From the sequence record OQ446694.1: a stretch of DNA of 64,000 bases; one strand, given 5' to 3'. Shown here one piece after another: positions 19,322 to 61,944 of the stretch (its first letter is position 1; every line of letters starts with the position of its first letter). Under the pieces are notes generated by a model. It did no database searches. It saw only the letters and a list, made by a program, of their open reading frames with translations, and had not been told where the DNA came from. The stretch comes from Escherichia phage Killian. The translations under genes and the position numbers were made by a program.

Positions 19322-19987
19322 TTAAAATTTCATTTTTCGACCTTTAAACCATCCTTCTGGAATTGGGTCAGTTTTCTTAATACGTTTAGAAACTTTTTCA
19401 TCTAATGAATGAATCCACATCATACCAAATTGGGAATTCTTTTCGCCCTGTTGATGTTTATTTCTGGCGTGAGATTCTTTCATTTTATTAATAGTTTCAG
19501 GAGTATGGGTCTTGCCCAAGAAAGATTTAGTATTTAAAAATTTCTCTCTATACTTAGGATTATCCCAAAGCTGTTTAAACCTTTCTGAACCCATTTTACG
19601 ATATTTTTCTTTAAGGTCTGGGTCGTTCTCAAATCTGGTTTTAAAAGCGGCAGCTCCTTTTAAGGAAGCTTCTTTCTTTTTATCCAAATATTCTTTAGTG
19701 TTTAAATGGTCCCAACCACCTTCACCACCTAATTTCAAATTATAAACATCAGGGCGCTTTAAAAACTCTTCAGTCACAATATTCTTTTCTGACTCAAACA
19801 TAGAGGTTTTATCGTCAAAGAACTCTAATATTTCTTTAGAAAAATTTTCTATACCATACTTATCTTGGGCTCTTTTTAATAATTTACCAGAACCCATATA
19901 TCCATCATCTAAATTTTCGGTAGAATGAGCGCCTATATAGATTTTATTATTAATTTTATTTGTTATTTTATAAATGTAATGGAACAT
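19322..19987 (-). CDS. segB: GIY-YIG homing endonuclease SegB
   Basis: 221 aa; N-terminal GIY-YIG motif (HYIYKITNKINNKIYIGAH); located between tRNA-Ile and tRNA-Arg as in T4. Confidence 0.85.
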   Translation of the reverse strand: MFHYIYKITNKINNKIYIGAHSTENLDDGYMGSGKLLKRAQDKYGIENFSKEILEFFDDKTSMFESEKNIVTEEFLKRPDVYNLKLGGEGGWDHLNTKEYLDKKKEASLKGAAAFKTRFENDPDLKEKYRKMGSERFKQLWDNPKYREKFLNTKSFLGKTHTPETINKMKESHARNKHQQGEKNSQFGMMWIHSLDEKVSKRIKKTDPIPEGWFKGRKMKF

Positions 19988-56656: not shown

Positions 56657-56686
56657 AACAAAGGGACCGAAAGGTCCCTTTTTATT
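56654..56686. terminator. Bidirectional rho-independent terminator between convergent genes 24 and rnlB
   Basis: AGGGACC-GAAA-GGTCCCT hairpin flanked by A-run upstream and T-run downstream. Confidence 0.8.
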
Positions 56687-57690
56687 TAACTTACCAATTC
56701 AATCCAAGCCGGACGAAGTACATCTTGTACCATTTTAACTAATTCCTTCTTAATCAAAGAAGGATTATCCGCTTGAGTTAGAGTAATACCTTCACGAGAA
56801 GTTTCTTCCAAAATATCTTGAACCGTTAGTCCCATCACCTTTCCAAAATCTTTTGGACCGATTTCGCCAATTTTAGAAATAACGTTATTTACTCGGTTCA
56901 GTGTAACGTAACAAGCTAAAATTCCAACCAATTTGTTATCAGCTTCTGACAGTTCAACTTTAGCTTTAATAGGCTTATCAGACTTTTTCTTTTCACTAAA
57001 TTTAGAGTTCTTGCATTTGATAGCTACGCGATTGCCATTAGGCATCCAAGAAGGATAACAAGGTTTCAATACATATCCTTCAGCGGTAAATACTTCGCCT
57101 TTTACTTCAGCATTCCAAACGCATTTATTCGCATCAACTAATCCAGCATGGTCTACTGTAAAATTATAATCTTGGACGACAGAATCTAAATCATTTGGCA
57201 ATTTAATAAGCTCTTCAAATTTACCGCGACCTAAAAGTGGAGCCATTTTAAATTTAAATGTATTACAGAATGATTCCATCATATAATCATCGACATAAGT
57301 CACATCACCACTTTCTGTAGTAACAATAATGTCAAATACATAAAAATCTTTATCGCCATAATCGACATTCTTCTGAATGCCAGGTCCGGCAAATTCACCG
57401 AAGACTTGATAAGATACAACCGCTGAAGTTTCCATAATATCTTGTACTGCTTTAATGGAATCAGCGTAATTCTTCAAAATAATTTCATACCCAAAGAAAT
57501 CTTCAGCAGGAAGAATAGGACCAGTTCGTTTAGCACAAGTTACTTTATCACGCTCAATAATCAATGAGAAATTTGTGCCATGAATCTTTTCACGAGCTAC
57601 CCATTCGCCACCAGTCAATCCTAAACTATAAAGTTTTTCAATGAATTTAGAATTGTAATGATTTTCAAGACTGCTATACTTTTTAAACAT
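56686..57690 (-). CDS. rnlB: RNA ligase 2
   Basis: 334 aa; nucleotidyltransferase motif I KIHGTN (lysine adenylylation site); matches T4 Rnl2. Confidence 0.95.
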
Positions 57691-58273: not shown

Positions 58274-59692
58274 TTATGGATAGGTATAGATGATACCAGT
58301 TTCTAAAGCAGTTTTATGAATGATGTATCCATTACGTGATTCTTGAACATCAACTTCTGGATAGTCTTTCATCATCTTCTGAAGAGTGTAACGATGCAGG
58401 TAGTATTTACTGTCTGGATCTTCAGTTTTCCAATCTTTACCTTCTTCGGTCATTTTTTGGATTTCATCCATAACCCACCAACCGCACCAGATATAAGCTG
58501 AAGTACGATGTGGAAGAGGATGAACATAAGGCAATTCACCTTCTGGTTCCGGAGCAACTTTATCAGTTACCTGAACTTGGCCTGTTGCTTTAACTGTTTT
58601 ACTATCATAGTCGGTTGCTGTAACGACAGCAGTAACTTCAATAGTTTGACTTCCAATAGATGAGGTGTCAACGGTGTATACGTTAGTTGACCCTTCTACA
58701 GGAGAAGAATCTTTCTTCCATGAGTATTCGATTTGTGCTTCTTCTGGAGCATCAGTGACATTAGCCGTAAATGTAGCCGAAGCATCTTGCTGAACGTTAA
58801 TAGAAGGAGGAGTCAATGTAACCTGCGGATTCATTGTCTTCTTATTAACTGTCAATGATACTTCATTAGAAGTAACTTCCTTTTCATTGTAATTTTCAGC
58901 CGTTACTTGGGCTACACACTTAACTGTTTTAGCTCCAACTGTGGTAGGAGTATAGTTAAATGTAGTAGTAGTTTCTCCATCGACCAGAGAACCGTCAACA
59001 TACCACTGATACGTAGCAGACGCTCCTGGTGGCTGTGAATCCAAGGCAGCAGTAAATTGAACTGGGGTTCCAATTACTCCGGCAGCAGGATTAGCAGGAG
59101 TTACGGCTAACGTAGTTGTCTGTGTTTTCTTATTAACTGTTAATGATACTTCATTAGAAGTAACTGTTTTTGCGTCATAATCTGTTGCTGTTACTTGAGC
59201 TACACACTTGATTTTTTTAACTCCGCTTGTGTCAGGAGTGTAATTGAATGTAGCGTCAGTTGCTTCGTCTACAGGAGAACCGTCAACGTGCCATTGATAC
59301 GTAGCGTTTGCACCTGATGGCTGTGAAGCTAAGGCAGCGGTAAATTCAATTGGAGTTCCAATCACTCCAGCATCAGGGCTACCAGGAGTTACAGCTAAAG
59401 TAGTTGTTTGTGTTTTATTTTTGACTGTGATAGTTGTCGTAGTTTCTGCTGTTTCAGGATCAGCTTCTGGAACTGTATTTGTTGCAACCACCTTAATAGT
59501 CTTTTGACCTGCAGGTCCTTTTAGTACATAGCTAAAAGTTGCTTCAGCTCCATCCTGTGGAACATTATCTACACTCCAAGCATAGGTAATAGTTCCACCT
59601 TCAGTTTGACCACTGGGTGTAGCAGTAAACTGCTTGGTTTCATCAATAACTCCTGTTGGGGTTTTAGGAGTTATATCAACTGTAAAAGTCAT
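58274..59692 (-). CDS. hoc: Hoc, highly immunogenic outer capsid protein (Ig-like domains), 472 aa
   Basis: Thr/Val-rich Ig-like repeats followed by a conserved C-terminal capsid-binding region (PYVHPLPHRTSAYIWCGWWVMDEIQKM...); contains an internal tandem domain duplication. Confidence 0.9.
   Translation of the reverse strand: MTFTVDITPKTPTGVIDETKQFTATPSGQTEGGTITYAWSVDNVPQDGAEATFSYVLKGPAGQKTIKVVATNTVPEADPETAETTTTITVKNKTQTTTLAVTPGSPDAGVIGTPIEFTAALASQPSGANATYQWHVDGSPVDEATDATFNYTPDTSGVKKIKCVAQVTATDYDAKTVTSNEVSLTVNKKTQTTTLAVTPANPAAGVIGTPVQFTAALDSQPPGASATYQWYVDGSLVDGETTTTFNYTPTTVGAKTVKCVAQVTAENYNEKEVTSNEVSLTVNKKTMNPQVTLTPPSINVQQDASATFTANVTDAPEEAQIEYSWKKDSSPVEGSTNVYTVDTSSIGSQTIEVTAVVTATDYDSKTVKATGQVQVTDKVAPEPEGELPYVHPLPHRTSAYIWCGWWVMDEIQKMTEEGKDWKTEDPDSKYYLHRYTLQKMMKDYPEVDVQESRNGYIIHKTALETGIIYTYP
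58841..59416 (-). repeat. In-frame tandem duplication (2 x 288 bp) inside hoc encoding two ~96-aa Ig-like domains
   Basis: Protein units KTQTTTLAVTPGSPDAGVIGTPIEFTAAL...SLTVNK and KTQTTTLAVTPANPAAGVIGTPVQFTAAL...SLTVNK; DNA units visibly similar (e.g. ttcttattaactgt(c/t)aatgatacttcattagaagtaac). Confidence 0.85.
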
Positions 59693-59701
59693 AAGTTATC
59701 C

Positions 59702-60382
59702 TTATTTTAATGTTACGAAAGAAGAATTGCGTGTTTCACGAATTAGAACTGATCCGTCACGATTAATGTAGTAAATTAAGCTAAATAAAGTTTGATGCGC
59801 AGACGCATGTTCAAAACTGGTTGGGCGAGATTTCCAATCTGGAGTTTCAGCAATCCATTGGTAAATCCACCAAGGAACAGTGCAGAATCCTGGATTTTTT
59901 CCAATCAGCTGAAGATTTGGGCTAAAGTTTTCCGGAAGAGTAAATACAGACGGCTTTTCAGATTCAATAATCTCAGCTACAGCCTGTTCGAATTTTTCTT
60001 CAACAAAAGGAGTATCTTCAATCAAAACATCGGTATTTTCAGGAATTTTATCCGTTTCTACTACTTCAATTTTAATGTCAGATTTAACCGGAGAATCAAT
60101 CAGAAGTGCTGCCTCTGGATTGACTTCTTCATCGTCATATTTTAATCCGTCTGCGGCATCAGCAGCATCGATTAAGTCTTTAATAGATAACCCATCAGTC
60201 TCTGGCATAGGTTCACTAGCGAGCTTCTGGAGGGCTTCTTCAATATCATTAACGATATTATCAAAAGATTTATTCTTTTTGACCTTTATACCAAACTGTT
60301 CAGCATATTCAGCTAATTTAGCTTTAGCTTCTTTATTATCATCAAGAGCCTTCAGCTTTGCAATATAATCTTTATCTATCAT
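59702..60382 (-). CDS. inh: Inh, inhibitor of prohead protease gp21
   Basis: 226 aa; position between hoc and uvsW; matches T4 Inh. Confidence 0.85.
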   Translation of the reverse strand: MIDKDYIAKLKALDDNKEAKAKLAEYAEQFGIKVKKNKSFDNIVNDIEEALQKLASEPMPETDGLSIKDLIDAADAADGLKYDDEEVNPEAALLIDSPVKSDIKIEVVETDKIPENTDVLIEDTPFVEEKFEQAVAEIIESEKPSVFTLPENFSPNLQLIGKNPGFCTVPWWIYQWIAETPDWKSRPTSFEHASAHQTLFSLIYYINRDGSVLIRETRNSSFVTLK

Positions 60383-60432: not shown

Positions 60433-61944
60433 ATGACTGACATTAAAGTACATTTTTATGATTTTAGTCACGTGAGAATTGATTGCGAAGAAAGTACATT
60501 TCATGAACTCCGTGATTTCTTTAGCTTTGAAGCTGATGGGTATCGTTTTAATCCGAAATACAAATATGGCCACTGGGATGGACGAATTCGTCTTTTAGAT
60601 TATAATCGCCTTCTTCCATTCGGTTTAGTCGGGCAAATTAAAAAGTTCTGTGATAACTTTGGCTATAAAGCCTGGATTGACCCGCAAATTAACGAAAAAG
60701 AAGAATTATCAAGAAAAGATTTTGATGAATGGCTTTCTAAATTAGAAATCTATTCAGGAAATAAAAGAATTGAACCGCATTGGTATCAAAAAGATGCAGT
60801 GTTCGAAGGATTAGTTAATCGTCGTAGAATTCTTAATCTTCCAACATCCGCAGGTAAATCTTTAATTCAAGCTTTGCTCGCTCGGTATTATTTGGAAAAT
60901 TATGAAGGCAAAATTCTTATCATTGTTCCAACAACTGCTCTGACAACTCAGATGGCTGATGACTTTGTTGACTATCGTTTATTCAGTCATGCAATGATAA
61001 AGAAAATCGGCGGTGGAGCATCAAAAGATGATAAATATAAAAATGATGCACCGGTCGTTGTTGGTACATGGCAAACTGTAGTAAAACAACCAAAAGAATG
61101 GTTCTCACAGTTTGGAATGATGATGAATGATGAATGTCATCTTGCTACAGGAAAAAGTATTTCATCTATCATATCAGGTTTAAATAACTGTATGTTTAAA
61201 TTTGGTTTGTCTGGTTCATTGCGCGATGGCAAAGCTAATATCATGCAGTATGTTGGAATGTTCGGTGAAATATTTAAGCCAGTAACGACCTCTAAATTAA
61301 TGGAAGATGGACAAGTAACTGAGTTAAAAATTAATAGTATTTTTCTTCGCTATCCCGATGAGTTCACTACTAAATTAAAGGGAAAAACTTACCAAGAAGA
61401 AATAAAAATTATTACTGGGCTCAGTAAAAGAAATAAATGGATCGCTAAATTAGCTATTAAGCTTGCGCAAAAAGATGAAAATGCTTTTGTCATGTTTAAA
61501 CACGTATCGCACGGTAAAGCTATTTTCGATTTAATTAAAAATGAATACGATAAAGTTTATTACGTATCAGGGGAAGTTGATACCGAAACCCGCAATATAA
61601 TGAAAACCTTAGCTGAAAACGGTAAAGGAATAATTATAGTAGCTAGTTATGGTGTATTTTCTACCGGTATTTCAGTTAAAAATCTGCATCACGTTGTTTT
61701 AGCACACGGTGTTAAATCTAAAATTATTGTATTGCAAACAATAGGTCGCGTATTACGTAAGCATGGTTCTAAAACAATCGCAACAGTCTGGGACCTCATA
61801 GATGACGCGGGCGTAGTTTCTAAATCAAAAACATCTTCTAAAAAATACTCGCATTTAAACTATCTTTTAAAACATGGACTTGATCGTATTCAGCGTTATG
61901 CTGATGAGAAGTTTAATTATGTGATGAAAGAGGTTAAACTTTGA
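60433..61944 (+). CDS. uvsW: UvsW DNA/RNA helicase (SF2)
   Basis: 503 aa; Walker A PTSAGKS, DECH box; matches T4 UvsW. Confidence 0.95.
   Translation: MTDIKVHFYDFSHVRIDCEESTFHELRDFFSFEADGYRFNPKYKYGHWDGRIRLLDYNRLLPFGLVGQIKKFCDNFGYKAWIDPQINEKEELSRKDFDEWLSKLEIYSGNKRIEPHWYQKDAVFEGLVNRRRILNLPTSAGKSLIQALLARYYLENYEGKILIIVPTTALTTQMADDFVDYRLFSHAMIKKIGGGASKDDKYKNDAPVVVGTWQTVVKQPKEWFSQFGMMMNDECHLATGKSISSIISGLNNCMFKFGLSGSLRDGKANIMQYVGMFGEIFKPVTTSKLMEDGQVTELKINSIFLRYPDEFTTKLKGKTYQEEIKIITGLSKRNKWIAKLAIKLAQKDENAFVMFKHVSHGKAIFDLIKNEYDKVYYVSGEVDTETRNIMKTLAENGKGIIIVASYGVFSTGISVKNLHHVVLAHGVKSKIIVLQTIGRVLRKHGSKTIATVWDLIDDAGVVSKSKTSSKKYSHLNYLLKHGLDRIQRYADEKFNYVMKEVKL

Follow-up and report, generated by a model that had tools for sequence, protein, structure and literature searches.

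The hoc gene of the T4-like (Tequatrovirus-type) Escherichia phage Killian is a two-unit T-even form in which an old tandem duplication has given two copies of an Ig-like domain, and its particular allele probably arose when a three-unit allele contracted by one unit (we put the probability of this reading at about 0.8). The window analysed here is a stretch of 64,000 nucleotides of record OQ446694.1, in which hoc lies at 58274–59692 on the minus strand. What is mildly new is the clean evidence that hoc changes in one-unit steps by unequal recombination, together with the likely three-to-two contraction in the Killian lineage. The two-unit gene itself is common and already present in many records, and it represents no new kind of biology.

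The product of hoc is the head outer capsid (decoration) protein, here an ORF of 472 residues with four Ig-like domains and a C-terminal capsid-binding domain. A phmmer search matched it to T4 Hoc (PDB 5vf3_Z, 376 residues) at E = 2e-215, and among phage protein families it matched PHROG 1149, 'Hoc-like head decoration', at 5e-148, with three further families of the same name (PHROG 21694, 14282 and 11091) matching residues 390–472. The Pfam PKD model scored above its cut-off, and Ig_2, Ig_3 and I-set scored below theirs. An HMM built from the two repeated units, which we call D2-type units, found four Ig-type domains, scoring the D2-type units at ~190 bits and the first and last Ig-like domains (D1 and D3) at ~32 bits, a weak match that would make D1 and D3 distant paralogues of the D2-type unit. 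The AlphaFold model contains four all-beta domains (residues 1–90, 93–186, 189–282 and 285–375) with pLDDT above 90, and the best Foldseek matches to this model in the PDB are strings of Ig domains such as those of Dscam1, ICAM-5 and CD22. The C-terminal domain is modelled at low confidence because the alignment is shallow, and it was assigned instead by its sequence identity to the solved T4 domain.

The locus is also that of T4, where hoc is flanked by inh on one side and by the small 24.x ORFs, rnlB and gene 24 on the other. In the Killian window, hoc is neighboured by Inh (PHROG 1051, 3e-102), with a UvsW-type helicase ORF at 60433–61944 and RNA ligase 2 at 56686–57690 nearby, such that the T4-type late-region order (uvsW, inh, hoc, small ORFs, rnlB, gene 24) is kept. 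Gene order around hoc is alike in Killian, UGKSEcP2 and moskry. Two plus-strand ORFs of 117 and 97 residues, at 59792–60145 and 60075–60368, run antisense inside inh; their translations are of low complexity and they are almost certainly not genes.

Ig-like domain 1, which forms the distal fibre tip, and its linker comprise residues 1–92 (59417–59692, minus strand), a segment that aligns to T4 Hoc and differs from it by few substitutions; the domain is all-beta in the AlphaFold model, with pLDDT 84–93. It is followed on the same strand by unit A, residues 93–188 (59129–59416), and by unit B, residues 189–284 (58841–59128), the orthologue of the final unit in alleles with two or three units. 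The next Ig-like domain, residues 285–376 (58565–58840, minus strand), corresponds to T4 domain 3 and aligns with T4 residues 189–280; it is all-beta with a pLDDT of about 90, and the Pfam Ig_3 and I-set matches fall within it at residues 289–374. The capsid-binding domain, residues 377–472, with the stop codon occupies 58274–58564 on the minus strand and differs by only 3 substitutions from T4 Hoc residues 281–376, a segment seen on the capsid in the 5vf3/8t1x structures. Because this anchor is nearly identical to that of T4 Hoc, Killian Hoc is predicted to bind mature capsids at the centres of their gp23 hexamers and to be dispensable for growth. D1, D3 and the capsid-binding domain are all nearly identical in the two phages, which share the design of an Ig string on an anchor (PMC10385173), and the difference lies in D2, of which T4 has one (376 residues) and Killian has two (472 residues).

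The duplication is evident at both the nucleotide and protein levels. Tandem Repeats Finder reports a repeat at 58835–59428 with a period of 288, 2.1 copies, 79% matches, 0% indels and a score of 745, and a repeat search pairs 58835–59122 with 59123–59410 at 79% identity. In coding register, 58841–59416 corresponds exactly to residues 93–284, and residues 93–188 align with residues 189–284 in frame and ungapped, with 72 of 96 residues (75%) and 228 of 288 nucleotides (79%) identical. Judged by these alignments, the unit-to-unit match lies far beyond chance. T4 residues 1–190 align to Killian residues 1–190 and T4 residues 177–376 to Killian residues 273–472, an overlap from which it follows that Killian Hoc is T4 Hoc plus exactly one D2-type unit. 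The ends of the units are invariant, each closing on …VTSNEVSLTVNKK before the following sequence opens with TQTTTLAVTP…, and about 20 variable internal positions per unit are spread over strands and loops. A preliminary description of this DNA had proposed an in-frame tandem duplication of an Ig-like domain in hoc, with 96-residue units about 75% identical and encoded by adjacent 288-bp units, in a 472-residue protein roughly one Ig domain longer than that of T4. These comparisons bear out each of these points and identify the duplicated domain as T4 domain 2.

Variation in unit number is widespread among T-even hoc genes. A megablast search matched hoc in 680 phage records, and among the listed top matches the same 1419-bp span was seen in sb1, U115, ime09, HP3, pSs-1 and others. 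We drew 60 GenBank records at even steps down the megablast ranking, of which 50 held a full-length hoc; about 23 had two units (1419–1425 bp) and about 27 had one (~1131 bp). Unit number was taken from the span in the record and not from BLAST coverage of the query, which is unusable for this purpose because overlapping pieces are joined, so that coverage reaches 100% for one-unit genes too. The 120 best-matching protein clusters gave a similar range, with 80 at 376–379 residues, 30 at 468–472 (29 of the 120 at exactly 472), nine at 567–570 and one at 439, and the first three length classes carry one, two and three D2-type units, respectively. At least four phages, the Escherichia phages UGKSEcP1, UGKSEcP2, KMB26 and ECML-123-2, have three units (568–570 residues), one more than Killian. 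The two-unit genes of ime09, HP3, pSs-1, sb1, U115, phiD1 and moskry share the architecture and 1419-bp length of Killian hoc at 89–95% nucleotide identity. Such genes come from several continents, are filed under Escherichia, Shigella and Yersinia hosts, and have been in GenBank for years (e.g. ime09, JN202312).

Unit number also varies among the closest relatives of Killian. Across the adjacent 18 kb, its ten nearest backbones (at least 97.7% identity) carry 3, 3, 2, 1, 1, 1, 2, 2, 2 and 2 units, one of the single-unit genes being a split ORF. By this comparison, unit number is decoupled from the genome backbone. The preliminary description had called for a comparison of Hoc length and domain count across T4-like phages, and had reasoned that a four-Ig layout carried uniformly by close relatives would make the arrangement ancestral. 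The two-unit state is indeed old, but the uniformity is absent, close relatives carrying anywhere from one to three D2-type units.

Several records around this series deserve mention. The repeat is annotated as a repeat_region in the two-unit hoc of Escherichia phage moskry (MN850651.1), which is filed under Mosigvirus mar005p1, and vB_Eco_mar005P1 itself (LR027383.1) has one unit; this contrast indicates that hoc changes copy number, or is exchanged, on a short timescale. The gene is split into two CDSs or truncated in several close relatives, namely vB_EcoM_OE5505 (locus 276–1412), Ec_YwIITB1 and BYEP02 (439 residues); either a genuine loss, hoc being dispensable, or errors in sequencing could account for this. 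A 32-kb record named 'Staphylococcus phage SAJK-IND' (MG010123.1) carries T4-type hoc sequence at 19322–19608 with 93% identity, probably through contamination or a mislabelled assembly. In addition, one source names the 472-residue Hoc cluster (58 members) 'endonuclease [Shigella sonnei]', which is an annotation error, the phage sequence sitting within bacterial assemblies.

The age of the duplication was assessed from the divergence between the units. Killian units A and B differ with a dS of 0.61, a dN of 0.154 and a dN/dS of 0.25 (Nei-Gojobori), and this dS exceeds most orthologue distances among two-unit genes. D2-type units cluster by position and not by genome: the first units of two- and three-unit genes have a mean identity of 88% across phages and are 78–79% identical to last units, and the majority of single units belong with the last units. 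The dS of 0.61 and the grouping by position therefore indicate that the duplication long predates Killian. Most of the more distant Hoc proteins retrieved from IMG/VR contain three Ig domains that share only 20–39% identity with one another, which suggests that a single D2 would be the older state in the wider Hoc family; the 21 hoc loci from this source include too few close relatives for population counts.

These results leave very little room for a recent duplication of a T4-like single D2 specific to the Killian lineage, as the preliminary description had implied. Although the protein exceeds that of T4 by exactly 96 residues and its two copies adjoin without a break in the frame, as such an event would produce, 60 of 288 nucleotides differ between the units at a dS of 0.61, nearly identical orthologues of each unit occupy the equivalent position in other phages, and the layout recurs across the continents and hosts noted above. 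A recent lineage-specific duplication is refuted by the grouping by position, the same-position orthologues and the dS, and the arrangement, shared by many T-even-type phages, is not unusual. Even less credible is an assembly artefact that expanded or collapsed the repeat. Tandem repeats are prone to mis-assembly, but at 79% identity the longest stretch common to related units is about 23 nt, so assemblers resolve the hoc units; moreover, genes of equal length were found in many independently sequenced genomes and the hoc reading frame is intact.

To understand how the alleles are related, the composition of the units must be considered. Segment haplotypes of D2-type units are shared across positions and copy-number classes, and the nearest relatives of Killian hoc at D1 are not those at its 3′ end; by these sequence patterns, hoc alleles are mosaics produced by recombination. 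Owing to this mosaicism, a consensus threshold of 75% left just 3 diagnostic positions, and units were compared instead by segment haplotypes and nucleotide painting. This approach resolved the three-unit array as phiD1 unit A followed by phiD1 unit B and a last unit of the Killian/U115 type, with 0–1, 0–1 and 2–7 mismatches, respectively. Copy-number variants differ by whole in-register units, and Killian unit A is an exact chimera, built from the first two units of the three-unit allele. Compared with other two-unit alleles, the Killian gene stands apart in its first unit, where 5′ sequence of the phiD1/U115-type first unit is joined to 3′ sequence of the phiD1-type second unit. Invariant unit ends would allow in-register unequal homologous recombination to add, remove and shuffle 288-bp units, and because of this invariance the reading frame would stay intact.

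The immediate origin of the Killian allele is best approached through its nearest backbones, UGKSEcP2 and UGKSEcP1, which are 99.2% and 98.9% identical to Killian across the adjacent 18 kb of structural genes and whose Hoc proteins (570 and 568 residues, respectively) have three units each. Killian unit B differs from unit 3 of UGKSEcP1/2 by 2 mismatches in 288 nt and from unit 2 of U115 by 5. Within unit A, positions 1–227 differ from UGKSEcP1 unit 1 by 2 mismatches, and positions 220–288 have 0 mismatches to unit 2 of that phage versus 11 to unit 1. The switch from unit-1-like to unit-2-like sequence places the putative crossover in the tract CAAGTAAC, at unit A positions 220–227 (59190–59197, minus strand), where the run of identity between units 1 and 2 is 8 nt. 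When one 288-bp register is removed from UGKSEcP1 hoc, the remainder matches Killian hoc at 1396 of 1419 positions (98.4%), a maximum reached by all nine in-register deletions starting at gene nt 496–504. The best two-unit gene, that of Shigella phage sb1, is 95.3% identical, and no database allele is higher.

These observations are consistent with a pathway of two steps. An unequal crossover between two different two-unit alleles would have produced the three-unit allele, and a 288-bp in-register deletion within that allele, joined in the 8-nt tract, would then have produced the allele of Killian. T4 forms deletions between short direct repeats. For the immediate history, the loss of one unit is likelier than a gain, with a direction taken from parsimony only. 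Certain features sit less easily with a contraction. In sb1, the first unit carries a comparable chimeric 3′ portion, with 2 mismatches, and therefore the chimeric unit may predate Killian and have been moved by recombination. Identity tracts of up to 23 nt exist between units 1 and 2, compared with 8 nt at the crossover, and simple homologous recombination would not be expected to prefer so short a tract. Finally, the inh/uvsW flank and the stretch from hoc to rnlB are 95.8% and 96.9% identical to UGKSEcP1, below the 99% of the structural region, from which it follows that the hoc locus has some independent history.

The alternative is the reversed direction, in which a Killian-like two-unit allele is the older one and the three-unit allele of UGKSEcP1/2 and KMB26 gained 288 bp from a phiD1-like allele. 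We regard this course as possible but rather unlikely. The 288 bp absent from Killian do exist as a contiguous segment, at 99.7% identity, in the two-unit genes of phiD1, YUEEL01, OMNI12, EC101, ESh33 and KMB23, Killian unit A would offer homology arms on both sides for their insertion, one of 227 nt matching unit A of phiD1 and one of 69 nt identical to its unit B, and the chimeric unit A of sb1 would fit an older origin of this form. However, a gain leaves unexplained why unit A of Killian should already fuse, exactly, 5′ sequence of phiD1 unit A with 3′ sequence of phiD1 unit B. For such a join to form, 288 bp must previously have been deleted from an array in which these two units lay side by side, and the reversed direction therefore needs more steps than the single deletion of the contraction we favour.

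The preliminary description had further suggested that domain number in Hoc is a plausible target of diversifying selection, which is not borne out at the level of domains. Across seven two-unit genes, pairwise dN/dS was 0.32 for D1, 0.15 for unit A, 0.19 for unit B, 0.12 for D3 and 0.03 for the capsid-binding domain. The Ig domains are less constrained than the capsid-binding anchor, and at values of 0.12–0.32, pairwise Nei-Gojobori estimates among these seven genes gave no sign of domain-wide positive selection in the Ig domains.

The main display platform of T4 is Hoc, which is also proposed to mediate the adherence of phages to mucus. T4 Hoc is a fibre of ~180 Å, and one molecule is bound through its C-terminal domain at the centre of each gp23 hexamer, with 155 copies per capsid (PMC10385173). 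The extra Ig domain probably lengthens the Killian capsid fibre by roughly one domain beyond that of T4. In ΦPNJ-9, the D2 residues S183, L184 and T185 are required for MUC2 binding (PMC11853027). Killian Hoc has S-L-T at residues 183–185 and again at 279–281, and the duplication may double the D2 surface including this putative MUC2-binding motif. In ΦPNJ-6, MUC2 is bound by D1 and not by D2 (PMC11150434). It is tempting to speculate, though we consider it unlikely, that the D2 array is a maintained polymorphism of one to three copies that recombination between co-infecting phages often reshuffles, with unit number tuning fibre reach and the number of D2 sites that bind mucin or cell surfaces. 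If so, selection would act on copy number across niches and not on point substitutions, and Killian would represent a fresh three-to-two contraction. The natural variants with one, two and three D2-type units on nearly identical backbones offer a ready-made series for tests of fibre length and D2 number, and could address mucin binding, aggregation and immunogenicity.

Variable domain number in Hoc is already known, and the two-unit form is ordinary. Hoc homologues keep the anchor and vary in the number of their Ig domains, of which Serratia phage Muldoon has as many as 10 (PMC10385173), T4-like phages differ in how many domains their Hoc contains and how these are arranged (PMC11150434), and the Hoc of ΦPNJ-9 is without D3 (PMC11853027). 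Muldoon, ΦPNJ-9 and Marfa resemble Killian in that the C-terminal anchor is conserved and the Ig-like domains attached to it vary in number. In Hoc-like proteins with other domain counts, unlike in Killian, other domains have been lost or duplicated, and identity is much lower (35–58%). In the full-text literature we found general statements on domain number and no description of the D2 duplication specifically.

The T4-like phages of Klebsiella carry a divergent Hoc lineage with an independent tandem duplication of a different Ig domain. Duplications in divergent Hoc proteins were found by an ungapped offset scan, as self-BLASTP gave no off-diagonal rows. In Marfa (MN044033.1, 1001–2416, 471 residues), the copies are offset by 94 residues from residue ~186 and are 81% identical. 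In a second member of this lineage the copies are 52% identical, and three relatives have a Hoc of 377 residues. Klebsiella phages in GenBank are likewise split, with hoc matches of roughly 1358 bp in some and 1076–1134 bp in others.
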